DNA of 41,294 nucleotides from a virus (Duplodnaviria > Heunggongvirae > Uroviricota > Caudoviricetes). A program made the position numbers and the translations under genes. Each line of letters starts with the position of its first letter. The stretch's first letter is position 1. The notes beneath the pieces were generated by a model. The model made no database searches and had not been told where the DNA came from. It saw only the letters and a list, made by a program, of their open reading frames with translations. The stretch lies in the IMG/VR virus record IMGVR_UViG_645951847_000024, one strand, 5' to 3'. Of this stretch, positions 1 through 11,812 are shown in pieces.

Positions 1-3000
1 TTGCTCACCTTTACGGATTCGCGTCAGGGTACCGCTCGCATTTCAGCCCGCTTACAGCAGGATGCCGATAAAGCGACGTTGCGAGCTCTTTGTTACCAGG
101 AGCTGGCAAATATTACAGAGCCTTCAGCAAAACTCAGCCCGGCACACTGTGCACTGTTAGAGAAAGTTATTAGCCAGTTTTCTGTCCTCCCTTTAAAAAA
201 TTCCATCGACGCGCTGAAAAAAGCGATGGCTGCGAATGAGGAGCTTAGCCCGACGGACATTCAGGCACTTAAAATTATTGAGCCGATGGTGAGTTCCTTA
301 AGCACGGAGCATGCTGAAGCGATGCAAATACTTCAGGCTAACTCTGGCAATCAGCAGAAGAAAACCATGTCATGGCAAACGCTGTCTGAACAGCTGGTTG
401 GCAGTGTGGACCTTGCCGATAGAATGAGAGGCAGTTTTAAAGAATTGTCTGGGCTTGATCTTACTAAACAACAGTTTGCAGATTTTTGTTTATACAGCGA
501 GTTTGGTCGCCGCCCTAAAAATGCCTGGACCCTCGAAAGTCTGGGTCTGGTAGCCATTCACTATCCATTCATTGATAAAGTTACAACCTGCCCGCAGGAC
601 TGGAAGACATTATTACCCGATCCCGATAAGCAATTAGCGGAATGGCGTAATTTATTGAAGATTACTCTTGATTTCTTTATCCGTGAAAACAGTGCCGTTT
701 TTTACGAAAACGAGCAATACCCTCGCTGGATGGGGGCACGTTTCCCGGTAAAAATGCTCCAGGGGCCAGATAAAAAAAACAAAGGGCAGAAACGTGATCA
801 ACTTTGGCCACAAATACGCGATCGCCATTATAACCGGGTCATTAAGCTATTAATCGCAGTCTTTCCGGCAATACAACCTGAGCAGGCTCACTGGAAATCG
901 TTAGTTAACCACTTAATGATTGAGGTCTGGGATGCAATTCGACCCTGCTTACGTCAGTTTGAGTCGGGTTATCAGCTGGATATTAAACAACAAGCTGAAT
1001 TTTACAGTCCAAAGCAAGTGTGGCGTTGCCCCTATACTCGACGTGCGTTAGACGTCACGTTGCTGGGATACTCTCCGTATTTGCCGGGTAGCAAAGAAAT
1101 TGCACCTGAAAAAGCAGTGTTGATTGAAATGCCTGAGCTTCCTGTACGTCACTGGCGTTTGTCTGGTGGTGGAGAAATCGCCCGAGAAGAACGTCTGGAG
1201 TGGCTGGAAAGTAATGCGCTGATTCAACATGCCCGCGAGGAAGGATTATGGTCTACTCGCAGCGACCGACTGGCCCTGAAAGATAGCTGGTATCGTCTGG
1301 AGGAACACTCTGCGCAGAGAACGCCTGAGCAGAACCAGTTTAATGAAAAACAATTTAAGTCAGGCAAAGTTAATGTGCTGAACTGTTCCACGACCATGGA
1401 GATGGGGGTGGATATTGGTGGTATGAGTTTGGTGGCAATGAACAACGTTCCTCCAGCGCCGGCAAATTATTTGCAACGTGCAGGTCGCGCGGGGCGTCGT
1501 GGAGAGAGTGCATCTGCTGCCATTACGTTATGTAAAAACACGGCGCATGGAATGGAGGTATTCAAAGACCCCCTCTGGGCGTTCAACACTACTGCCAGTG
1601 CGCCACGGGTTCGTTTTGGGAGCAGTAGTATTGTTCAACGACATGTTAATGCCCTGGTTTTAGGTCTGTTTTTACGAGCTGAAGTTCCTGATGCGACAAA
1701 ACTGAGTTGCAAATGGTTCTTTGAAGGTGATGAGAGCCAGTGTCTTCGTTTTCTCCATTGGTTAAATCACCAGGCCGATCAGCTGGCGGATAAACTTAAA
1801 CGCCTTACTCAGGGAACCGTACTGATGTCATTGACGGCAACCCAGCTCTTGACCCGCACACAAGCAATGATGCAGCAGGTTGATATCCGCTGGAGAAGCC
1901 AACTTGCGATACTGTTGGAAAATATCGAAGCGTTGAAGGCGGATAACAGCGCGTGGGAAGAAACACCAGCAGGTAAAGCCATCGCTTATCAGCTTCGTGA
2001 TTATCGCGGTGCATATCTGTTTTCTAAACTCATTAGTGAAGCGTTCCTGCCGGGGCATGGTTTCCCGGTTGGCGTAGTCAATTTCAATTATCTGACGGCA
2101 GATGAGCTGGAAAAACGTCGCGCAATAAAAGCCACTCAGGCTGACCCTAATGAAGGGGGAGAAAGCTTTTCTCGTCGTATTGAAAAATTGCCCAGCCGTG
2201 ATTTGCCTACAGCATTACGCGAGTATGCGCCTGGTGCAGATGTGGTATTGGGCGGAAAAGTATATCGTTCCTCGGGCATTATGCTTGGCAAGGTGCTTGC
2301 CAGCGGGCAGGAGCTGTCAGGCGATCATCATATTCCGTGGTTCTGGCATTGCCGTAAATGTGGTGCGGGGGCAACCAGTACTACCCATCCTGTCGAATGT
2401 AGTCACTGCAAAGCGGATATACAGCAACTTGATGTGAAGCGTTATTTACAGCCTGTTGGTTTTGCGACAGATATTCGTTATCAGGCACATAATGATGTAT
2501 CCATGCCTGCACAACTTCCCTGGAAAGATCCACGTGTTCTTGTACCGTCTTCGGTGTGGGTTTCTTTACCCGATGCTGGGCTAGGACGTTACCGTTTTAG
2601 CCATAGTGGGGAATTGTTCCACTTCAGTGAAGGGGAATTTGGGCACGGCTACGCAATTTGCCTCTCATGTGGTCGGGCAGAATCTCAAACTCAACCCCAG
2701 CGTACCCCTGAAAATCTAAAGAACCCAGAGAGGGAAAATACGCATTACCTGTTGCGAGGGGGCAGTAACGATCGTCAGGGGAGCAATAAATTGTGCCACG
2801 GTCATGTGCATAAAGATCTGTGGTTGGGATATAGCAGTCGTACAGATATGGTTGAGCTGCAACTCAATGATGATAATGGCCTGTTGATCCGTGATGAGGT
2901 TGCCGCGCGTTCCCTTGCGGTCGCTTTGCGTGAAGGGTTAGCGCATAAATTGGGTATCGAAAATACTGAGCTGGGCGTGACGACGCAGCAAGCGCGCGAT

Positions 3001-3279
3001 ATCAATGGCTATACCGGATATTCCATCTTCATTTACGACAATAATGCGGGTGGTGCAGGTTATGCAGTGCAATTGATCGACCATTGGGCTGATGTCTTTA
3101 ATTACGCCAGAAAATTGCTCGATTGCAGTTGCGATAAATTCTGTCACCACTGCTTGCTCAGCTACGACAGTCAGCATTATGTCAACAGATTAGATCGTCA
3201 CCATGCATTAACCCTGCTTACCAATGTACGGTTGCAGCGACTTAACCTCGCGCCAGATATAGCGCGGCGATTTTTTTGA
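1..3279 (+). CDS. C-terminal part (5' end cut by window) of a large SF2 helicase with a Cys-rich DUF1998-like zinc-ribbon C-terminal domain; probably host-encoded
   Basis: Helicase C-domain motifs TMEMGVDIGG and QRAGRAGRRG in the translation; C-terminal Cys clusters (CRKCGAG...CSHC, CLSCG, CSCDKFCHHC). ORF starts at window position 1, so truncated. Family assignment from memory only. Confidence 0.6.
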   Translation: MLTFTDSRQGTARISARLQQDADKATLRALCYQELANITEPSAKLSPAHCALLEKVISQFSVLPLKNSIDALKKAMAANEELSPTDIQALKIIEPMVSSLSTEHAEAMQILQANSGNQQKKTMSWQTLSEQLVGSVDLADRMRGSFKELSGLDLTKQQFADFCLYSEFGRRPKNAWTLESLGLVAIHYPFIDKVTTCPQDWKTLLPDPDKQLAEWRNLLKITLDFFIRENSAVFYENEQYPRWMGARFPVKMLQGPDKKNKGQKRDQLWPQIRDRHYNRVIKLLIAVFPAIQPEQAHWKSLVNHLMIEVWDAIRPCLRQFESGYQLDIKQQAEFYSPKQVWRCPYTRRALDVTLLGYSPYLPGSKEIAPEKAVLIEMPELPVRHWRLSGGGEIAREERLEWLESNALIQHAREEGLWSTRSDRLALKDSWYRLEEHSAQRTPEQNQFNEKQFKSGKVNVLNCSTTMEMGVDIGGMSLVAMNNVPPAPANYLQRAGRAGRRGESASAAITLCKNTAHGMEVFKDPLWAFNTTASAPRVRFGSSSIVQRHVNALVLGLFLRAEVPDATKLSCKWFFEGDESQCLRFLHWLNHQADQLADKLKRLTQGTVLMSLTATQLLTRTQAMMQQVDIRWRSQLAILLENIEALKADNSAWEETPAGKAIAYQLRDYRGAYLFSKLISEAFLPGHGFPVGVVNFNYLTADELEKRRAIKATQADPNEGGESFSRRIEKLPSRDLPTALREYAPGADVVLGGKVYRSSGIMLGKVLASGQELSGDHHIPWFWHCRKCGAGATSTTHPVECSHCKADIQQLDVKRYLQPVGFATDIRYQAHNDVSMPAQLPWKDPRVLVPSSVWVSLPDAGLGRYRFSHSGELFHFSEGEFGHGYAICLSCGRAESQTQPQRTPENLKNPERENTHYLLRGGSNDRQGSNKLCHGHVHKDLWLGYSSRTDMVELQLNDDNGLLIRDEVAARSLAVALREGLAHKLGIENTELGVTTQQARDINGYTGYSIFIYDNNAGGAGYAVQLIDHWADVFNYARKLLDCSCDKFCHHCLLSYDSQHYVNRLDRHHALTLLTNVRLQRLNLAPDIARRFF

Positions 3280-3390
3280 TACCGATTTGCATTTCATTTG
3301 ATACCGCTGAAAAACGCCGATACGCAACTTATTTGATACTAAATCGGCGCTTTTCTTTTGAGTTTTAGAATGAGTTTTTAAGCGCTCATT
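3280..3390. mobile_element. Candidate prophage right-end region (transposase-binding repeats?); exact terminus not resolved
   Basis: Three TTTGATAC(C/T) motifs at about 3273, 3298 and 3343, and a 13-bp inverted repeat (GAAAAACGCCGAT / ATCGGCGCTTTTC, about 3309-3357) between the host stop codon and the mom stop. No match to the canonical Mu terminal sequence. Confidence 0.3.
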
Positions 3391-4123
3391 CACTCTCTTT
3401 CAAACCAGTTTTAACTGTTTGTGGTTTTGGGTAAGGCTGGACTTTGAATAGCTTTGTGTTGAGGCGTTTTCTGGCCCTCTTGTTCAGAAACCGGATGTAA
3501 CGAAACTGTCGGAACTTATGAACACTGGCTCTGTCAATATTAGCCCTCAGATGTTCACCTCGTTGTCCGCCTCGTTTAATGGCATTCCTGCAAATCTCGT
3601 GATACCACTCGCCATCAAGTTCATAGAATATTGATTCATGGCTGCCTACATAATCAAAATTGCTTGCCTGATACACGACACCAAGACAGCCACAACGCTC
3701 ATCTGCAAACGACTGAACCCACTGTACCTGCGGATAAAGCTGCCTGATTAGCTTGAGCGCGTAACTGATTGCCCTTGATTCGGAGTTTCTCGGCATACAG
3801 TCATGCAGCCATAGCCGGTTAAGCTCCATATATTCTCGGTTCTGCGTACCCGTTACGACGCGTGCACCACTGTTTGGGTTAAGGGCGTAACCCCATTGCA
3901 TTACGCCAACAAGTTCCCGTTCTGAAAATATGCCCAGATGAAGGTAGGAGTTATTTACGAAACGGTGGCTGTAATGTTTATTGACGATGACCAGTCTGGC
4001 CAGCCAGCAACTTATTGTCTCAACCCGCAACTCACGGGAGCCATAACCAACGATATTGTCGTTATAGCGAATAAGTTCAGGCGTGCTGATGATTCGGGAT
4101 GTGACTTGCTTTCTGTTCCCCAC
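3386..4123 (-). CDS. mom: Mom-like DNA modification protein (anti-restriction)
   Basis: Last gene before the prophage right end, directly downstream of and overlapping a clear Com homologue, as in Mu com-mom. Identity by synteny only; Mom sequence not recalled. Confidence 0.55.
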
Positions 4124-4277
4124 GACAGGATTTCCTTGTGTATGTGGGGTGCTCTGTGGCGCTCGGAGATGTGATTTGATTGAGGGTTTTACAGCGCGGA
4201 CATTTTACTTCCAGATAACTGAAACTGGCCCGTGCCAGTAGCTTATTGCAGTGTCGGCACCGTATGTTTCGATACAT
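4077..4277 (-). CDS. com: Com zinc-finger translational activator of mom
   Basis: [14 protein letters not shown]...EVKCPRCK...EHPT closely parallels Mu Com (IRCKNCNKLL...IRCPRCK...EHPT); overlaps mom start. Start taken at internal ATG (residue 16 of the 4077-4322 ORF). Confidence 0.7.
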
Positions 4278-4341: not shown

Positions 4342-4688
4342 GATTCGATTTGTTTAATTGATACAACAAATAGATTGAAAAGTCATCAACAATGATTCAG
4401 GGAGGTGATTATTTACTTAAAGAAAACGAAGAGTTAGGTGGTGAAAACGATCATAAAATGATCATTTTATTGACTTTTTATACAGTGAAGGTAGGATCAC
4501 GCGTATATGTAGTATGTTTCAAATCAACAGGATACTACATAAAAGTGAAACCCAGCATAGCTGGAACTATGCTGGGTCAATCTGTAAAAACTTGCATCAA
4601 TGCTTTACTTCGAGCTCGTGGCGTATCCTATGATATTCCCCGGTCTCCTGTAAAGCAGAGATGCATAAAAAGGAGATCTTTATCATGG

Positions 4689-4856
4689 ATGAAAGAGCCT
4701 GTTTGCCCTGCCTGTAAGACTCCCTTACAGCTCATCTATCGCCGTTCTCGATCTCAAAATGGCAAGACATACAAACCCAAAAATGCTTCCTGTTTCAGGA
4801 TGCTGATATGTCCTGCCTGTTCTCCCAGGAGGGAAAATACACAAAACGTGCATTAA
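4689..4856 (+). CDS. Small 4-Cys zinc-ribbon protein (55 aa), function unknown
   Basis: MKEPVCPACKTPL...CFRMLICPACSP with CPxC...CPxC spacing; AAAAGGAG Shine-Dalgarno at 4669-4676 upstream of ATG 4689. The longer 4392-4856 ORF upstream looks non-coding. Confidence 0.3.
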   Translation: MKEPVCPACKTPLQLIYRRSRSQNGKTYKPKNASCFRMLICPACSPRRENTQNVH

Positions 4857-4894: not shown

Positions 4895-5140
4895 TTACAT
4901 CATAGTACCGTCAGTTCCGGGCTGAACCGGCTCTGGTTGCTCTACGGGTTGAGGATCATTTTCCGTGCTGTTTTCAGCCGGAGAACGGCCAACCATTCGG
5001 GCCAGCACTTCATCAACATATGCGTCGATTTGTGCCTCAAAATCCTTGCGAACCTGCGCCTTCAGCACGCGGTTCACTTCTTCAGAATAAAGTGCCTGTT
5101 TGACAAGCTCTTCAGTAACCGTGCCTTTAATCTCTGGCAT
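4895..5140 (-). CDS. Hypothetical acidic 81-aa protein with Pro/Glu-rich C-terminal tail
   Basis: Protein-like amphipathic N-terminal half; strong SD (AAAAGGAG) 8 nt upstream of the ATG on the minus strand. Confidence 0.5.
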   Translation of the reverse strand: MPEIKGTVTEELVKQALYSEEVNRVLKAQVRKDFEAQIDAYVDEVLARMVGRSPAENSTENDPQPVEQPEPVQPGTDGTMM

Positions 5141-5175: not shown

Positions 5176-5358
5176 TCAGAGCGGGGTCGGGTCGTTTGGG
5201 GATGACGGTGCCTGTGCTGTTTTACTGAGTTTTTCAGCTGCCGCATCATCAATTTTACGGCGAATATAATTTCTGATGACCTTATAACCACCGCTCACCA
5301 GATATAACGCACTGACCACAGCGCAGAAATAAAGCAGCATTGTATGAACGAATGTCAT
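5176..5358 (-). CDS. Hypothetical small membrane protein (60 aa, single N-terminal TM helix)
   Basis: Hydrophobic stretch LLYFCAVVSALYLVSGG followed by a basic region; weak SD (AAGG) upstream. Confidence 0.45.
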   Translation of the reverse strand: MTFVHTMLLYFCAVVSALYLVSGGYKVIRNYIRRKIDDAAAEKLSKTAQAPSSPNDPTPL

Positions 5359-5469: not shown

Positions 5470-5514
5470 CTCCCGCCAGCCATATCATGACCGGCGGGAT
5501 TTTTTTATTCTGTT
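5470..5514 (+). terminator. GC-rich hairpin followed by T7 run (plus-strand terminator-like), overlapping the esterase stop codon
   Basis: TCCCGCC (5471-5477) pairs with GGCGGGA (5493-5499), then TTTTTTTATT. On the minus strand the same hairpin is not followed by a T-run. Confidence 0.4.
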
Positions 5515-7544
5515 ACCGCTTTTTTCACTTCCACCACAATGCTGTCAATCAGCACCGGGTAAGTTGCATTTTTTGTGATATCCGTTACGCGGAGTTTGTC
5601 CACCGGGAAAGTTCCTACTGGTGACTGCGTCAGGGTAAACGCGGCACCATCCTGACCATCAATAACCGGAATAACCTGAAGGCTGTTATTTCCTGCAAAA
5701 CGGAAGGCCAGCGTATGCCATTCATTATCAAATGCACCAAAGGTTCCCAGTTTCTGGTTATTTGTTGCCACTTTTGCATTGTGGTACATCACATTCAGGT
5801 CTTTTGCGTCTGTCTGGATGTAGAACGATGCCAGCAGATTATTCCCTGCATCCCCTGTCAGGGTGACACCCTGCGGCAGAGAGGAAACCGGCCAGTAAAG
5901 CCCCATGACATACTGGTTTGCCACCAGGTCGCCAGGTACTTTAAAACGACAACTGATTAAACCACCATTTTTCAGCAGTTCAGCACCAGTACCGGCATCA
6001 TGATCCAGATACCAAGATGATTTACCTGTTTCCTTGGTCAGTTTCATTGCCTTACCACCTGTGCCTCCTGCATCACTGATAATTTCAGCTTTACCGCCAG
6101 CCGGCTCCCAGCCCTGGGCTTTCAGATTTCCTTCTGACTCACTGACACGATAAGACAGCAGTGTTGTGGTTACTGCTTCAGTTTCTGAAGGTGACGGCAC
6201 TGGTGCTTCAGTTTCAGAAGATGGAACATCGGCTTTTACTGTGGTTCGCCCCGCATGAGTCAGAACTGCCGTGGCCAGACGGTCGGAAATAATCCCACGA
6301 CGTGCCCATGAACTGAAATGGCTGGCCCGGTCCGCAGATGTCCAGGTGGCGGCACTGTTACGCCACGTTGAGCCGTAATAACCAATGGATTCAATATCCG
6401 GGTCTTCTGCCGGATTGTTGGTGGGTACATTCGCGTCATTTTCATCTGTCATTAATGGAACGAAATGAATGTTTTTATCTGTTTTGTTTTTGTAGCCGCC
6501 ATAGATTGCCTGGTATGCCGGTTCATTTTTCTGTTTCCAGAAATACGTGGTATCGCCACAAATCCACGGAACGCCAGCAGCACTGCCACCGGTACACTGT
6601 TCCGCCTGTTCAGCCAGGTCTGCGCGGAATTTTTCCACCATCGCCAGAAACAGCGCGGAATGCTCCGTCGGCTTCGCATCAATATCAAACTCGCCCTGCA
6701 TCCACACCACAGCAAGCAGGCGGTTTTTCGGGTTCTTCGCCAGTGCCGCTTTTGTCCGGCTGATTAAGTCCTTATACAGCGGCTTATCCACACCCCAGCG
6801 GGCTGAGTCCTCTGAAGCACCCGTGCTGTCACTGTACGTGCCGTCAGCACCCGCCGTGAATGCAGAACCACCACGGCAGCAGGGAACCAGCAGAATCCCC
6901 GCATCTGCCGGAATAAACGGCAGCAGTTTTTTGGCAATGTGAAGCCCCTGACCCACGGTGCCATATTGCCCTTTAGCCACATCCGCTTTCGGGTGATTTT
7001 TTCCACTCATATCCTGCACATCATGCAGACAGTGGTCGGCCAGAATGATGTCGTTATACTGACAGGCTTTACCTCCCGGCGTGACTGTACTGCGACGGGC
7101 TAACTGCATAATACGCGGTTCGGGGCGGTCATATGTCTCCGGCAGTGGCAGACCTTCACCGTAAGCCATACCGTTTGACTGACCAGCAAGAACCACCACG
7201 TAATACCAGGAAGGGGAGCTGGAAGCAGTTTCATTTCCTGACGGACGGGTATGTGTTTCAGCATTATCCCAGTCTGACGGTTCAGCAGTACCGGCAACAT
7301 CAGCACTTAACGGAATGACCGCACCAATACCCGCTCCGGTAATTTCCACACTCGGATCACCGGATACTGGCCTTACCCACAGGCAATCCCGTGTATTAAA
7401 ACTGATGAGACAGTCAGCAAATGTCATTCCTCCTTTTGTTTCGGCCGGAGGAAAGGGAGCCTCAAGAAATGCCGCTGTACCACCGGAAACTTTAACAGTA
7501 AAGTTTCCGGGCATTGATGATAGTTGAACCCATTTGGACGTCAT
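5505..7544 (-). CDS. Predicted sialate O-acetylesterase-like cargo protein (SGNH/SASA-type esterase with extra N- and C-terminal domains), NanS-p-like
   Basis: 679 aa; VVLAGQSNGMAYGEG resembles the GQSN catalytic-Ser block of sialic-acid-specific acetylesterases; sits between gin and com-mom, where Mu has no gene. Family from memory. Confidence 0.6.
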   Translation of the reverse strand: MTSKWVQLSSMPGNFTVKVSGGTAAFLEAPFPPAETKGGMTFADCLISFNTRDCLWVRPVSGDPSVEITGAGIGAVIPLSADVAGTAEPSDWDNAETHTRPSGNETASSSPSWYYVVVLAGQSNGMAYGEGLPLPETYDRPEPRIMQLARRSTVTPGGKACQYNDIILADHCLHDVQDMSGKNHPKADVAKGQYGTVGQGLHIAKKLLPFIPADAGILLVPCCRGGSAFTAGADGTYSDSTGASEDSARWGVDKPLYKDLISRTKAALAKNPKNRLLAVVWMQGEFDIDAKPTEHSALFLAMVEKFRADLAEQAEQCTGGSAAGVPWICGDTTYFWKQKNEPAYQAIYGGYKNKTDKNIHFVPLMTDENDANVPTNNPAEDPDIESIGYYGSTWRNSAATWTSADRASHFSSWARRGIISDRLATAVLTHAGRTTVKADVPSSETEAPVPSPSETEAVTTTLLSYRVSESEGNLKAQGWEPAGGKAEIISDAGGTGGKAMKLTKETGKSSWYLDHDAGTGAELLKNGGLISCRFKVPGDLVANQYVMGLYWPVSSLPQGVTLTGDAGNNLLASFYIQTDAKDLNVMYHNAKVATNNQKLGTFGAFDNEWHTLAFRFAGNNSLQVIPVIDGQDGAAFTLTQSPVGTFPVDKLRVTDITKNATYPVLIDSIVVEVKKAVTE

Positions 7545-7643
7545 AATAATCAGCCTGTTCCTGAATAAACTGAATTATCATATCCACAGACCGATAAACG
7601 CCATTTTGCGTTAATTCAGTAAAGGCCCAACAAAGGGAGCGTC

Positions 7644-8204
7644 TTATTTTTCCGAAACGCTCGCAGGATAATAACGATAAAGGGTTGAAAGGCCGATATC
7701 AAAAATAAGTGCCACCTGTCTTCGACTGACACCCCCGGCCAGTAAACGCCCGACCTGCTCGTATTGTTCCTGCGTGAGACGACGGGGTCTGCCGCCGGTT
7801 CGTCCCCTTTCACGGGCAGCTGCAAGACCAGCCCGTGTCCGTTCGACAATTAATTCACGCTCCATTTCTGCCAGCGCACCCATTATGTGAAAAAAGAAGC
7901 GCCCCATGGGGGTTGACGTATCAATGTTGTCAGTAAGACTACGAAAATTTATCCCCTGTTGCTGTAATTCATCTGTCAGCGCAACAAGGTGGCGCATACT
8001 GCGCCCCAGCCTGTCCAGTTTCCAGACCATCAGTGTGTCACCGGGTTTTAGTTTCTTCAGTGCCCGCTTCAGTCCCGGCCGCTGTGTCGTTTTACCACTC
8101 ATTTTATCTTCAAAAATCTGCTCACATCCTGCACATTCCAGCGCATTTCTTTGTAAACCTGTGTTCTGGTCATTTGTTGATACGCGTATATAGCCAATCA
8201 GCAT
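7644..8204 (-). CDS. gin: Serine DNA invertase (Gin/Hin/Pin/Cin family)
   Basis: MLIGYIRVSTNDQNTGLQRNALECAGCEQIFEDK...GRFFFHIMGALAEMERELI is near-identical in pattern to Mu Gin; catalytic Ser in RVSTNDQ; adjacent to an inverted tail-fibre segment. Confidence 0.93.
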   Translation of the reverse strand: MLIGYIRVSTNDQNTGLQRNALECAGCEQIFEDKMSGKTTQRPGLKRALKKLKPGDTLMVWKLDRLGRSMRHLVALTDELQQQGINFRSLTDNIDTSTPMGRFFFHIMGALAEMERELIVERTRAGLAAARERGRTGGRPRRLTQEQYEQVGRLLAGGVSRRQVALIFDIGLSTLYRYYPASVSEK

Positions 8205-8259
8205 GTATTTACCTTCCTTAAAAAGAGGTGGAAAGGCCTTTTAAAGCAGATATACGGCA

Positions 8260-8283
8260 TCCCTGAAACCTCGGTTTACGGGA
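8260..8283. other. gix/hix-like crossover site A (gin-proximal)
   Basis: TCCCTGAAACC-TC-GGTTTACGGGA: imperfect 11-2-11 palindrome of the AAACC-NN-GGTTT type used by Gin/Hin invertases. Confidence 0.5.
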
Positions 8284-8629
8284 TACTGTAAACAGGGCCG
8301 CGAATGCCCTGCCATCGAACGGAGCGGCTGTTGCAGCGAATAAACTCGCCACTCCAAGAAATATTAATGGTGTCCCATTTGACGGAACGCAGGATATAAA
8401 TATTACATCGGGGATGACGCAGTCTGTGGCTGACTCACGTTATGTTCAAAGCATTCGAAGAGGTTCAAGGTCAACGATTGGAATGCAATATAATATTTTT
8501 GAGGTTCCTGACGGATGCGTACTTACAGGGCTTGATGTCGCTGGTGATGGTAATGCAACGGTAACCGCATATTATCGACCTGTTCAGTTTCTGATAGATG
8601 GTTCGTGGAAAACAGCTTCCAGCGCATAA
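8273..8629 (+). CDS. Alternative tail-fibre C-terminal cassette (S'v), silent in this orientation
   Basis: Frame open from 8267; encodes GLRDTVNRAANALPSNGAAVAANKLATPRNINGVPFDGTQDINITSGMTQSVADSRYVQ, homologous to residues about 196-255 of the minus-strand tail fibre (GLRETVNKAADALPSGGTAVAANRLATPRNINGVPFDGTLDINITSGMTQSTADGRYVQ); both tips end YYRPVQ...W.T.SS. Confidence 0.6.
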   Translation, partial: GLRDTVNRAANALPSNGAAVAANKLATPRNINGVPFDGTQDINITSGMTQSVADSRYVQSIRRGSRSTIGMQYNIFEVPDGCVLTGLDVAGDGNATVTAYYRPVQFLIDGSWKTASSA

Positions 8630-8708
8630 AAGTGCAGTAGTTCAAAAAACAGATTATCTGAATAAATATATGATGATTTTGTCTTTTCAACAAAAACAAG
8701 GTGAAATA

Positions 8709-9230
8709 ATGGAGCTTATTAACGTAAAACGATATTACCCGGAACACAAACCCTATGGTGAGGATGTTCAGTATTTCCAGAGTGAGGACGGAAGGGATTT
8801 TTATGAATCTATCCCGCTTTTCACAAAGAAATACAAACTCTGTATTTCGCCTGTAACGGGTATTATCTGCTCTGTTGCTGAAGATGTCTCTGCTTTATAT
8901 CCGGCAGGTTTTACTGTTGTTGAAGTGGACGAACTGCCGGAAGGTGTGAATATTGACGGTAACTGGCAGTTTTCTGATGGCCTGATATCAAAGGTGCCGG
9001 TAAACTGGAAGACGGTTGCTGAAAAGCGCCGCTCATCGCTGCTCCAGGAAGCCAACGAAACTGTGGATGACTGGAAAACGGAATTAAAACTGGACATGAT
9101 TAGCGATGAAAATAAATTACAGCTGACGCGCTGGATGGCGTATATCCGACAGCTTAAAGAAATGCACTTTAATGATATTGCCAGTGAGGGGCATTACCAG
9201 GCGATTCCCTGGCCGGAAAAACCGGAATAA
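8709..9230 (+). CDS. Tail-fibre assembly (chaperone) protein, U'-like
   Basis: Follows S'v on the same strand; AAGGTGA SD before ATG 8709 (MELINVKRYYPEHK...); C-terminal ...IPWPEKPE resembles Tfa family ends. Family from memory. Confidence 0.65.
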   Translation: MELINVKRYYPEHKPYGEDVQYFQSEDGRDFYESIPLFTKKYKLCISPVTGIICSVAEDVSALYPAGFTVVEVDELPEGVNIDGNWQFSDGLISKVPVNWKTVAEKRRSSLLQEANETVDDWKTELKLDMISDENKLQLTRWMAYIRQLKEMHFNDIASEGHYQAIPWPEKPE

Positions 9231-9264
9231 TTCAGAGGGTGCATTCAGCACCCTTTTCTGTGGT

Positions 9265-10176
9265 TTACACTGAACTTACCGTTCTCCAGGCATTATTAAT
9301 ATAAATCTGAACCGGGCGATAATAGACCCCACCGATATTGTCCGCAGACCGGGAGCCGGTTTCCTGCACGTTAATTCCGGAAAGCATACAACCGGAAGGT
9401 GCGCTGTAATTCCATGACATTTCATTGCCTCCGGGTGAATGATAGCTCTGTGCTCCAAGCTGAACATTCTGTACATACCGGCCATCTGCGGTTGACTGCG
9501 TCATTCCTGACGTGATGTTGATATCCAGCGTTCCGTCAAAAGGAACACCATTAATATTTCTTGGGGTGGCGAGTCTGTTTGCTGCCACGGCGGTTCCACC
9601 CGATGGCAGGGCATCAGCAGCCTTATTTACCGTTTCCCGTAAACCAACGTTATCGATAAAAGCGCCTTTATCCGGAATGTCTGCGCCGTTCTGCTCCCTG
9701 CGCAGGTAACGGTTATCACCTTCGCTTTTGCTGTAAACATCCAGATTATTACGGGCGGTTCCCGCATTCTCCAGGTCGGCAAGGTTCTGATCCTTCGCCA
9801 GAGCATTAACGTCACCGGGACCAAGACTGTTTTTTGTGGCAAGCGCCCCAAGACCAAGATAACCACGGGCAAGACGCTGGGCTTCCGCACCGGCATCAGC
9901 AATTTCTTTCAGGTTGTTTTTCCGGGAAAAGGCATTCGCAGCGATAATGGCTTTAATGGACAGCGTAAGCTGGTTTAACTGCGCCTTATCCGGCTGAATA
10001 CTGGCTTCAGCCAGAATATTCAGCAGTTCGGCCTGGAGAATATTCAGCCAGTCCTGACCAATCCAGCTGATACCTTTTTGTCCGTCACCTTCGGTAAACC
10101 AGGTGGTGGTATTACTCTGCGCCGGTGCCAGCGCAGGCATATTCGCCACGCCGGAATTATTATCAACATGGAACAT
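9265..10176 (-). CDS. Tail fibre protein S (constant part joined to Sv tip in current orientation)
   Basis: Start taken at internal ATG (MFHVDNNSGVANMPALAPA) overlapping the upstream stop (TAATG); position after baseplate genes. Confidence 0.8.
   Translation of the reverse strand: MFHVDNNSGVANMPALAPAQSNTTTWFTEGDGQKGISWIGQDWLNILQAELLNILAEASIQPDKAQLNQLTLSIKAIIAANAFSRKNNLKEIADAGAEAQRLARGYLGLGALATKNSLGPGDVNALAKDQNLADLENAGTARNNLDVYSKSEGDNRYLRREQNGADIPDKGAFIDNVGLRETVNKAADALPSGGTAVAANRLATPRNINGVPFDGTLDINITSGMTQSTADGRYVQNVQLGAQSYHSPGGNEMSWNYSAPSGCMLSGINVQETGSRSADNIGGVYYRPVQIYINNAWRTVSSV
9635..9659. other. gix/hix-like crossover site B (inside tail-fibre gene S)
   Basis: TCCCGTAAACC-AA-CGTTATCGATA on plus; its inner arm is the exact reverse complement of the inner arm of site A (GGTTTACGGGA). 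S/S' homology begins exactly here. Confidence 0.5.
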
Positions 10177-10736
10177 TAAATATTCTCCTCTTCGTGACTG
10201 TTTGCATATACGTAAATAAACGTCTGCCATGCAGGCTTATAACGGTTCAGAATACATTCCAGCGCACCGCCTTCATAAATACGCAGCGGCGTGAGAATAT
10301 CATCCAGCACATTCATATTCCGGTAGCCGGTTTCACTGTTAATCGTGACAATACTGACCCACTGTGAATCCGGTGATGGCTGAATATCTATTTCATAACC
10401 AAACTCTGCCGCAAACCGGATATAAAATTCACGGTTAAGAGAGGGTTTCATCCGGTATTTATTCCCGGCATAACGCTGACGCTCCTGAATTGTTGCGCCG
10501 GTCATATCACATTCCGGTAACCCCAGATAACGCTCCCAGTCTTCCAGCAGCAGACGGGATGAATCAGGAAAACGTTCTGCCAGCATCTGGTTACCGGTCC
10601 AGGAAACACGCTCCGTGGAATGACTGAGGCCCAGGCACAAAGCCGCAAGAACGGATGACGGCCGCTTATCCCATGCCAGCCCGTCAGGCAGCAACTGCAA
10701 CAGGGCACGCTGATGCGGGGTCAGGGTTACAGCCAT
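10176..10736 (-). CDS. Baseplate/tail protein, Mu gp48-like
   Basis: Position between baseplate J-like gene and tail fibre; translationally coupled. Confidence 0.6.
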   Translation of the reverse strand: MAVTLTPHQRALLQLLPDGLAWDKRPSSVLAALCLGLSHSTERVSWTGNQMLAERFPDSSRLLLEDWERYLGLPECDMTGATIQERQRYAGNKYRMKPSLNREFYIRFAAEFGYEIDIQPSPDSQWVSIVTINSETGYRNMNVLDDILTPLRIYEGGALECILNRYKPAWQTFIYVYANSHEEENI

Positions 10737-11812
10737 GTGATTTCCCCCACGGTCAGCAACTCTGTATCTCCGGCCATCACGGACTTCAGCGGGCTGCGAA
10801 CTTCAAAATCCTCCAGTCCTTTCACCCCTGCAACAGCCCGCCAGAATGATGAAGGCAATACAAGTCCACCCGGCCGCGATTCGTTATAAAGCAGGTCCGT
10901 TAATGCCTGTTTTACGGCAGCCTGATTTTCCGGCGTTTTGGGTACAATCCTGATCTCAAACGCCACCGGCTTATTGGTCAGCTTAAACACGCTGATTGTC
11001 GGCCCAAGTGGCTGACCAACGGGCTGGCCCGTCGCCGGATCATCATGACTGCGGATATAATCCGCCACCCGCTTCACATCACCTTCTCCGGGGAAAATGT
11101 CAGGGTTATTATCCTGAACAAAAGTCACACCAACACTACCCGCCTCAGGCCATTCAGGCTTACACCATGCCCGCGTCACGCCCGGTACTTCCCGTGCCCA
11201 GCGTTCAAAATCATACTGTGTTCCCCCTGATGGCGGGTTCTGTACCCGGAATACCAGCCTGGACAGCAACTCCGGCACCGTTTCCACATCCGCACCACCG
11301 GTGAGTCCCGTGCCGGTGACCGTGGCTGTCTGGTTGATGCCCGCCTGTGGCGTGATAAAGGACAGGCGGGTTCCGGTCGGGGTATTTCCAGCGCGCCCCG
11401 CACTTTCCGCCTCCACATTAACATTCAGTGTTCCGGCTTTTCCGGTCGCAGAGCCGGTGATGCGGTACACAACACCATCGCTTCGCTGAAGGAGTACGCC
11501 TTCCGTGATCCCTGCATCCGTGGTCAGCATCAGTTGTACCGGTCCGTCAGCGCGGGAAGCCGGTTTACGGATGACACCCCAGAATGCGCAGTGTTTCAGG
11601 AGTTCGGCTTCATCAGCTTCTGTCGGAATTATCTGCCGGGAGATCCAGGCCAGATGTTCATGCTCCTGTGCTGACAGACCCGCCAGTGCATACGCAATGG
11701 CATTCAGGGTGGTTTCATTCACGCCCGGCTGCGAACCGGGCAGGCGCTGGCTGATATCCTGTTGTGTCTGTGTGATCAGTTGCGCCAGTGGTAAGGGCTG
11801 ATAAGGCATCAT
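10727..11812 (-). CDS. Baseplate J-like protein (Mu gp47-like)
   Basis: 361 aa, position and size in baseplate module. Confidence 0.7.
   Translation of the reverse strand: MMPYQPLPLAQLITQTQQDISQRLPGSQPGVNETTLNAIAYALAGLSAQEHEHLAWISRQIIPTEADEAELLKHCAFWGVIRKPASRADGPVQLMLTTDAGITEGVLLQRSDGVVYRITGSATGKAGTLNVNVEAESAGRAGNTPTGTRLSFITPQAGINQTATVTGTGLTGGADVETVPELLSRLVFRVQNPPSGGTQYDFERWAREVPGVTRAWCKPEWPEAGSVGVTFVQDNNPDIFPGEGDVKRVADYIRSHDDPATGQPVGQPLGPTISVFKLTNKPVAFEIRIVPKTPENQAAVKQALTDLLYNESRPGGLVLPSSFWRAVAGVKGLEDFEVRSPLKSVMAGDTELLTVGEITWL

Follow-up and report, generated by a model that had tools for sequence, protein, structure and literature searches.

Does the 1.4-kb block that lies beside a Gin-type invertase gene in this prophage invert, exchanging one tail-fibre tip for another, and can the copy at hand still do so? 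The window analysed here (the whole stretch of 41,294 nucleotides) belongs to the Sp18-type Mu-like prophages found in Shiga-toxin E. coli (STEC), and the initial annotation had proposed in it a miniature Gin-type invertible tail-fibre switch. An "invertible host-specificity region" has been mentioned for Sp18 (PMC2669165), and the switch itself is textbook biology, documented for that prophage. The inversion switch of Sp18-type prophages is thus real but previously documented, and its novelty is low. We consider it likely, if well short of certain, that the segment is the equivalent of the Mu G segment in this prophage type and inverts at its cores through a Gin-family invertase, the copy in the window being probably locked.

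The setting is that of a Mu-type late region, where baseplate genes precede the switch and com/mom follow it. A Phage_Mu_Gp48 gene (10176-10736, Pfam) adjoins the start of the fibre gene, and the Mu baseplate set (J/gp47, GP46, V and DNA circularization genes) lies upstream according to the RefSeq annotation of identical DNA. On the other side, a Mom Pfam match is found at 3386-4123, and RefSeq annotates a Com-family gene in two sibling prophages at the place equivalent to window positions 4077-4277. Sp18 of E. coli O157:H7 Sakai (ECs_4989-4992) belongs to the same element family; gene order and products are alike and the 61-nt right junction is identical. The two prophages differ in their chromosomal insertion sites, the window prophage being integrated inside a DEAD/DEAH helicase gene, and in their crossover cores, which match in Sakai (left TT, right AA), whereas the window has left TC and right AA.

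The invertase gene (7644-8204, minus strand) is intact and encodes a Gin-type serine DNA invertase of 186 aa, which confirms that a Gin gene sits beside the block. The protein carries the Pfam domains Resolvase (1.4e-51) and HTH_7 (1.7e-14), matches the PDB Gin structure 3UJ3 (E=2.3e-91) and is identical to Mu Gin at 136 of 186 residues (73%). The catalytic Ser9 lies within YIRVSTNDQ, the catalytic domain being N-terminal and the HTH C-terminal. The Sakai Sp18 counterpart ECs_4992 is annotated as 'DNA-invertase', and the same protein as in the window (WP_000904930.1) occurs in genomes that have flipped. A Q..RL motif and a basic KRALKK stretch are specific to Fis-dependent invertases, and contact with Fis and the enhancer involves equivalents of Hin Q151, R154 and L155 and basic residues of helix B (PMC3798978). 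Alignment with Gin indicates that EQVGRLL and RPGLKRALKKL are conserved, and the residues equivalent to the Fis/enhancer-contacting ones are retained. The window switch would be expected to depend on Fis and an enhancer. A Fis-motif scan of the invertase 5' region revealed no convincing pair of sites such as make up a recombinational enhancer; a loose scan with this degenerate motif put a candidate pair at positions 29 and 78 of the gene, in Mu gin as well as in the window invertase. Conservation of synonymous sites over invertase codons 1-40 (21/33, vs 45/98 elsewhere; p=0.11) was not decisive.

Two 26-bp crossover sites delimit the segment, each with a 2-bp core between half-sites of 12 bp and inverted relative to the other. 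The invertase-proximal site (8259-8284; ATCCCTGAAACC TC GGTTTACGGGAT) has its TC core at 8271-8272 and aligns ungapped with Mu gixR, while the distal site inside the fibre gene (9634-9659; TTCCCGTAAACC AA CGTTATCGATAA) has its AA core at 9646-9647 and aligns base for base with Mu gixL. Both sites fit the 26-bp invertase crossover consensus (Sandmeier, quoted in PMC4134206), and the gix-like sites predicted to flank the block are therefore present, within 1 nt of their initial placement. Core to core, the segment measures 1375 bp. Searching the window with the pattern TAAACCNNSGTTT at up to one mismatch gave 7 matches against 1.0 expected, the best three being the two crossover sites; apart from this pair beside the invertase, nothing matches the pattern well. 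Additional sites that would make the locus a multi-inversion shufflon were considered and rejected: the one-mismatch matches at 5958, 23065, 31633 and 32408 are without flanking half-site features.

The fibre ORF (9265-10176, minus strand) encodes 303 aa (WP_000469162.1 in RefSeq). It is composed of a constant N-terminal part, Sc (176 codons, 9649-10176, minus strand), assigned by homology to Mu S, and the expressed variable C-terminus, Sv (127 codons plus stop, 9265-9648, minus strand). Over residues 1-198 the fibre shares 46.5% identity with the Mu S N-terminus, and the Sv tip resembles the C-terminal ends of P2-like fibres (48% identity). At the other end of the segment lies the silent alternative C-terminus, S'v (119 codons plus stop, 8267-8629, plus strand), which translates as NLGLRDTVNRAANALPS...WKTASSA*, lacks a start codon at the crossover site and is 57% identical to the Sv tip (73/129 columns). 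In the same orientation as S'v and downstream of it, the tail-fibre assembly (chaperone) gene tfa (8709-9230, plus strand; Pfam Caudo_TAP, 1.9e-18) shows 28% and 33% identity with Mu U and a P2-like tfa, respectively. It is the only Caudo_TAP gene in the segment, and the Sv tip has no chaperone gene of its own. Sv and tfa are convergent, their ends 34 nt apart, and a consensus terminator scan identified between them a hairpin (9234-9256, plus strand) of a 9-pair stem followed by a T-run, which may act as a terminator.

The homology between the fibre and S'v was said to begin at the two sites, and an imperfect inverted repeat of 182 nt (left arm 8267-8448, partner arm 9470-9651) does begin there. 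Its arms are 78% complementary, with longest perfect runs of 20, 14, 13, 11 and 11 nt, and it is by far the largest repeat within 7000-11500. In the alleles of 2012C-4502 and Z869a the repeat arms are mosaic, suggesting gene conversion. Inversion of the segment in silico yields an uninterrupted fibre, ...GAFIDNVGLRDTVNRAANALPS...TASSA*, in which 127 residues are replaced in frame by 119; this agrees with the exchange of the last ~125 residues that had been anticipated. All ORFs of the segment are intact and in frame in either orientation, and flipped genomes do contain S'v fused in frame to the constant part (e.g. WP_032213164.1 in FORC_044).

In the Gin family, invertase dimers bind the two inverted 26-bp sites and make a cut staggered by 2 nt in the central dinucleotide of each, after which one half-site pair is rotated by 180 degrees and religated; here this would leave the 1375-bp segment inverted. 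Because the crossover falls within the fibre gene, the 176-residue Sc would be joined either to the 127-residue Sv, as in the window, or to the 119-residue S'v. Only S'v is followed by the sole assembly-chaperone gene of the segment, and, since there is one such gene and not two, only the flipped orientation is predicted to co-transcribe the chaperone with the fibre. Inversion would presumably change the host range.

In Mu-type G segments, as in the window, a constant fibre N-terminus continues in frame into one or the other of two alternative C-termini. The crossover sites of Mu and the window are homologous and their positions agree, falling after about 170-176 codons of the fibre gene and, at the left core, 68 nt upstream of the invertase start; the Gp48, Gp47 and com/mom context is also common to both. 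The window segment is nevertheless not a scaled-down Mu G, because it has one assembly gene instead of two (U and U' in Mu, where each tip is followed by its own chaperone gene). As initially described, it is much shorter than Mu G (1375 vs 3059 bp), and its variable tips comprise 119-127 residues as compared to about 320-335. Further, the inverted repeat is 182 nt long and imperfect, against the 34 bp cited for Mu and SfMu; from the invertase to com there are four additional genes, one of them coding for a SASA/DUF6645 protein of 679 aa; and mismatched cores set the window copy apart. The label 'miniature' holds in relation to Mu G but is not distinctive, as segments of 1.27-3.4 kb, two of them below 1.6 kb, adjoin Gin-like invertases in other Enterobacterales.

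Evidence that the switch operates comes from public E. coli genomes. At a coverage of at least 80% of a 2.9-kb query, the window orientation was found in 182 E. coli records and the in-silico inverted construct in 23 complete E. coli genomes, four O157-type genomes being only one core base apart from that construct. In 11 of 13 flipped copies, the first base flanking the core keeps its original state and the first informative base within (8284/9634) has switched, which places the exchange within 8271-8283, an interval of 11-13 nt around the core; in the remaining two, the repeat arms are too similar there to place it. The presence of both orientations together with this mapping indicates that the switch of the Sp18-type family inverts in nature, with exchange at the gix cores. 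RecA-dependent homologous recombination over the 182-nt repeat could in principle have produced the same polymorphism without the invertase, given that such a repeat exists and that mosaic arms occur. However, the repeat is merely 78% identical with a longest perfect run of 20 nt, and the exchange interval is not that longest run but coincides with the centre of the Mu gix-homologous sites. The crossover mapping speaks against this route as the cause of the inversions, and we reject it as extremely improbable.

Whether a given copy can flip is expected to depend on its cores. In Hin/hix and Cin/cix, the cut, staggered by 2 nt, falls in a central dinucleotide whose overhangs have to pair once rotation is complete, and in Hin one core base change of this kind blocks ligation of the inverted product (PMC4817059). 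SfMu with a 1-bp change beside the core gave lysates that were alike in host range (PMC4406740). Invertase systems are characterized by identical cores, whereas the AA at 9646-9647 of the window reads TT in the inverted register and does not match the left TC. Since the overhangs of TC and TT cannot pair after a single 180-degree exchange, the window copy is probably locked, or strongly impaired and very slow, in the Sc-Sv orientation. The proposal of an invertible switch accordingly stands for the family, in which sibling prophages occur in both orientations with exchange at the cores, but probably not for the window itself.

The distribution of core alleles is consistent with this reading. 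Matched cores occur among siblings as TC/GA (PA20, TX 265-1) and TT/AA (Sakai), and without exception the 13 flipped copies are matched too (11 TC/GA, 2 TT/AA). At position 9646, PA20 and 11 of these 13 carry G; the other two have A there, combined with a left TT, and this A leaves the fibre residue unchanged (GTC to GTT, Val). This A is not a mutation private to the window, as AA right cores are found in 89 records, including Sakai; its pairing with a left TC is the unusual part. The TC/AA combination is carried by the window, 06_3235, 93_0495 and the strain-117 series, all uninverted, and roughly 22 uninverted records appear to have it. A TTC insertion, giving a 3-nt core (TTC/AA), is present in 40 records across O26, O103, O145 and O157, SS TX 313-1 being an example of this core state, and we know of no described counterpart for such a natural 3-nt core allele. 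Among the genomes sampled, mismatched or 3-nt cores occur in the window orientation only. A rough Fisher test of orientation against core matching on estimated counts gave p of about 0.002, the genomes being clonal and non-independent, and the left/right pairings were partly inferred from exact-match counts and 24 fetched E. coli loci out of ~200 genomes. Matched-core copies are also mostly uninverted (about 94 vs 13 flipped), so the absence of flipped mismatched copies is weak evidence.

That the window switch is fully active, flipping at normal frequency into two host-range variants because the invertase tolerates the core difference or invertases of other prophages work in trans, appears rather unlikely. 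The invertase is intact and identical to that of flipped genomes, and both half-site pairs are otherwise good. By strand polarity, a TC x TT exchange followed by one round of replication would yield flipped TC/GA and TT/AA copies, and both exist; these are, however, more simply explained as inverted forms of matched TC/GA and TT/AA copies, which also exist uninverted. P1 Cin reportedly recombines sites with differing cores at low frequency with 'localized conversion' (Iida and Hiestand-Nauer, 1986), and if so, a lock in the window copy need not be absolute. Against such tolerance stand the ligation failure of Hin across one mismatched core base (PMC4817059) and the count of 0/13 mismatched flipped copies vs roughly 22 apparently mismatched uninverted ones. 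A different view is that a larger Mu-like G segment has decayed to the present remnant, losing one chaperone gene, and that what is left is of no use to the phage and persists in orientations that are neutral relics. The single tfa and the many copies with core defects (the TTC insertions and TC/AA) would fit this, and related P2-like fibre tips are followed by tfa. It is nonetheless improbable, as every ORF is intact and in frame in both orientations, the single-tfa layout recurs with matched cores in an unrelated Enterobacter soli prophage, nearly identical O157 prophages show recent inversions, and Sp18 DNA is efficiently packaged in Sakai (PMC2669165).

Returning to the favoured reading of a functional Gin-type switch with a probably locked window copy, we tentatively raise a further idea, which is doubtful as yet: the core may serve as a natural on/off latch. 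Matched cores would flip, TC/AA or TTC/AA would freeze the phage in the chaperone-less Sc-Sv state, and the matched states would be linked through a mismatched intermediate by Cin-like 'localized conversion'. The occurrence of matched TC/GA and TT/AA states and the lack of flipped mismatched ones among Sp18-type copies fit the Hin/Cin core rule.

Comparable switches are known from other E. coli prophages. In the e14 P segment with PinE and in EC958 Phi1, Phi2 and Phi4, as in the window, alternative fibre C-termini are fused by a short segment next to a small serine invertase, and the 26-bp crossover sites of pin-type switches likewise have TT or TC cores. The e14 and EC958 elements differ in being lambdoid or P2-like, with other fibres, and the EC958 segments (2.07-3.1 kb) have mirrored pairs of fibre-tip and minor-fibre genes. 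Both orientations of pin-type switches are found together in cultures (PMC4272514; PMC4134206). Phase variation has also been reported for the 'Mu prophage' of EPEC E2348/69, in a paper whose text and supplements contain no segment coordinates (PMC4272514).

Tail-fibre inversion switches determine which bacteria a temperate phage can infect. For a Mu-like transposing phage of STEC lineages, the switch bears on the spread of the phage and of anything mobilised with it. The additions made here are modest: inversion has recurred among public STEC genomes, the ability of any one copy to go on flipping should depend on its polymorphic core, and the single chaperone gene makes the orientations unequal. 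For annotation, fused fibres and S'v fragments, at present labelled 'hypothetical' or 'partial', can be named, and core-state data can aid the choice of strains for in vivo tests of the core-identity rule. If the core does act as a latch, public genomes represent a population-scale natural experiment on that rule for serine invertases, and selection may favour a locked host range in STEC.

Many Shiga-toxin-producing E. coli genomes carry Mu-like prophages in which the 2.9-kb switch region is 100% identical, and its 61-nt right junction also occurs unchanged in prophage Sp18 of O157:H7 Sakai, where a DNA-invertase (ECs_4992), a tail-fibre fragment, a tail-fibre assembly protein and a tail fibre are annotated. 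The surrounding genes are of Mu type, with Mu Gp48 assigned by Pfam and Gp47/J, Gp46, V and a DNA-circularization protein annotated by RefSeq on identical DNA. Further, a Mom-family gene (Pfam) lies on the other side of the switch, and two sibling prophages have an annotated Com-family gene at the corresponding place. Asadulghani et al. (PMC2669165) described an invertible host-specificity region in an Sp18-type prophage, so the switch was already recognised, at least in silico. The element is this described region of Sp18-type Mu-like prophages, and its novelty is low.

The left crossover site (8259-8284), a near-palindromic 26-bp sequence (ATCCCTGAAACC TC GGTTTACGGGAT), lies 68 nt upstream of the invertase start, and the right site (TTCCCGTAAACC AA CGTTATCGATAA; 9634-9659) lies in inverted orientation within the tail-fibre gene (9265-10176, minus strand). 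An imperfect inverted repeat of 182 nt (8267-8448 and 9470-9651, 78% complementary), the sole large repeat in the neighbourhood, runs inward from both sites. Scanning the window yielded no further good crossover sites, so the switch has two states rather than being a shufflon. The silent alternative tip, S'v, is a plus-strand frame of 119 codons without its own start (NLGLRDTVNRAANALPS...WKTASSA, then stop) that opens in the left repeat arm and shares 57% identity with the C-terminal 127 residues of the expressed fibre. Computed inversion between the cores fuses it in frame to the first 176 fibre codons. The coordinates in the initial annotation, the homology starting at the sites and the swap of about 125 residues are thus borne out; an effect of this swap on host range may be expected.

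The invertase, a 186-aa ORF (7644-8204, minus strand; Pfam Resolvase and HTH_7), matches the crystal-structure sequence of Mu Gin (E=2e-91) and is identical to Mu Gin at 136 of 186 residues. In the alignment it retains Q..RL in the DNA-binding domain and the basic helix-B stretch, reported to be specific to Fis/enhancer-dependent invertases (PMC3798978), and the switch is presumably Fis dependent. A search for the enhancer's two Fis sites gave no confident assignment; the degenerate motif scan found a candidate pair at gene positions 29 and 78, common to Mu gin and the window's gene, and synonymous-site conservation was higher in codons 1-40 than in the rest of the gene, though not significantly (p=0.11). 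Reverse-complemented, the window aligns with Mu without gaps over gixR and onward into gin as far as nt 260, with the same 68-nt core-to-start spacing. At the distal site the alignment is to gixL (Mu TTATCCAAAACC TC GGTTTACAGGAA, window TTATCGATAACG TT GGTTTACGGGAA), and residues 1-198 of the fibre share 46.5% identity with the Mu S N-terminus.

The core-to-core segment is 1375 bp, compared with 3059 bp in Mu, so the reported shortness relative to the G segment stands, but 'miniature' singles out nothing special. Among Gin-like invertases (66-76% identical) in other Enterobacterales, site pairs are spaced 1266 bp apart in Enterobacter soli, 1530 bp in Kluyvera, about 2.0 kb in Morganella and Pluralibacter, and 3.4 kb in Erwinia; in E. 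coli prophages, the published switches measure 2.07-3.1 kb (PMC4134206). Wherever both sites of these other-Enterobacterales pairs are well matched, the cores are TT/AA (left/right), that is, matched. In many draft genomes of other Enterobacterales the contig breaks off upstream of the Gin-like invertase gene, at a distance of about 70-190 nt (fetched loci L020, L021, L023-L025, L027, L028, L031, L036 and L039). This is the exact start of the invertible segment and fits assemblies broken by both orientations coexisting.

Between the invertase and com/mom, a 679-aa ORF (5505-7544, minus strand) carries a SASA/SGNH sialate-O-acetylesterase-type domain and a C-terminal DUF6645; Mu lacks a counterpart at that position, and the product may serve as a second tail protein for binding or modifying the receptor. 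Between com and this ORF lie, first, a 154-aa ORF without a Pfam match (4392-4856, plus strand) and then DUF826 and DUF1378 genes (4895-5140 and about 5176-5358, both minus strand), none of which belongs to the Mu late region. The prophage end near 3260 cuts into a large DEAD/DEAH-box helicase gene (1-3279, plus strand) in its 3' part. The gene encodes a MrfA Zn-binding (MZB) domain and is present unbroken in hundreds of E. coli genomes. The prophage/helicase junction is absent from every complete genome in the collection and therefore represents a distinct transposition site. The chromosomal site of the same prophage differs between strains; it adjoins bcsB in PA20 (L001), beside a truncated PilZ-domain (bcsA-like) pseudogene, and lies in the tail region of another prophage in 06_3235 (L019). 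Several genomes match at 2-9 places, which would allow invertases to act in trans.

Among 5,426 complete E. coli genomes, the 2.9-kb query was covered to 80% or more by 182 records in the window's orientation and by 23 when inverted in silico. Four O157-type genomes equal the inverted construct save one core base. In 11 of 13 fetched flipped copies, the base outside the core (8270/9648) is unswitched and the first discriminating inner base (8284/9634) is switched, which confines the exchange to 8271-8283. RecA-type recombination across the repeat is argued against, because this interval offers 11-13 identical bases and the longest identical run lies elsewhere (20 nt at 8354); the mapping argues for site-specific exchange at the core. 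RefSeq annotates in flipped genomes a protein fusing Sc, the constant fibre part, to S'v, and a now-silent fragment of Sv, the tip expressed in the window. Together with the crossover mapping, this shows natural inversion for the prophage family. The flipped allele of 2012C-4502 (L004) and Z869a (L008) carries one additional A in its outer left half-site (CTGAAAACC). Next to each of the two sites, its repeat arms are identical over about 30 nt, which is suggestive of gene conversion between them.

The window's cores, TC on the left and AA on the right (TT in inverted register), differ by one base; in the fibre, base 9646 is synonymous (GTT or GTC, both Val). Counting exact matches over E. coli genomes with the window's orientation gave left cores of TC in 89 records, TT in 27 and TTC, a 1-nt insertion, in 40; the right core was AA in 89 and one base off in about 77, being GA wherever sequence was fetched. 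Pairings of uninverted copies, taken mostly from fetched loci and otherwise from exact matches, include matched TT/AA (Sakai, 7-15 45A, 98E11, 20151001), matched TC/GA (PA20, TX 265-1, UTAK-14), mismatched TC/AA (window, 06_3235, 93_0495, strain 117) and TTC/AA with a 3-nt core (SS TX 313-1). The cores match in each of the 13 flipped copies (TC/GA in 11, TT/AA in two). On estimated counts (uninverted about 94 matched and 62 unmatched, flipped 13 and 0), a Fisher test gave p of about 0.002, which is only suggestive of a tie between core matching and flipping, given non-independent genomes and pairings that were in part inferred. In Hin, one mismatched core base blocks ligation of the inverted product (PMC4817059), and for SfMu a 1-bp difference next to the core was proposed to explain an unchanged host range (PMC4406740). 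Taken with the differing cores and the matched flipped copies, these precedents make it probable that the switch of the window's copy is locked in the Sc-Sv orientation or flips very seldom.

Flipped TC/GA and flipped TT/AA are both found among E. coli genomes. From the 3'-overhang geometry, a TC x TT exchange would leave heteroduplex cores, and one replication would then yield flipped TC/GA and flipped TT/AA, each matched; the same outcome was reportedly termed 'localized conversion' for P1 Cin by Iida and Hiestand-Nauer in 1986. Such conversion and simple inversion of the matched uninverted states explain both products equally well, and the data do not discriminate between them. The TTC core (AAACC TTC GGTTT; example in fetched locus L011, 2501-2562), with AA on the right, occurs in O157:H7, O26, O103 and O145:H28, and all copies with orientation checked are in the window's orientation. 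Its 3-nt spacer should abolish exchange, and it might derive from mis-repair of a heteroduplex core.

The segment has a single gene for an assembly chaperone (8709-9230, plus strand; Caudo_TAP), which shares 28% identity with Mu U and 33% with a P2-like tfa. This gene follows the silent cassette and is convergent with the expressed tip; the 34 nt between them contain a terminator-like hairpin (9234-9256). The late transcript would thus encode Sc-Sv without a chaperone in the window's orientation, and Sc-S'v with the chaperone only when flipped. Fibre residues 197-303 resemble the extreme C-termini of P2-like fibres (48%), and a P2-like phage has a tfa directly behind a tip of this kind. The asymmetry between the two orientations is real. 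The Enterobacter segment shares the single-chaperone layout; that of Kluyvera fits two tips and two chaperones within 1.5 kb. The Gin-type switch proposed initially is right in kind, but that proposal overlooked the unmatched cores and the chaperone present in only one orientation. To the described switch, the natural polymorphism of the core adds a minor point that can be tested.
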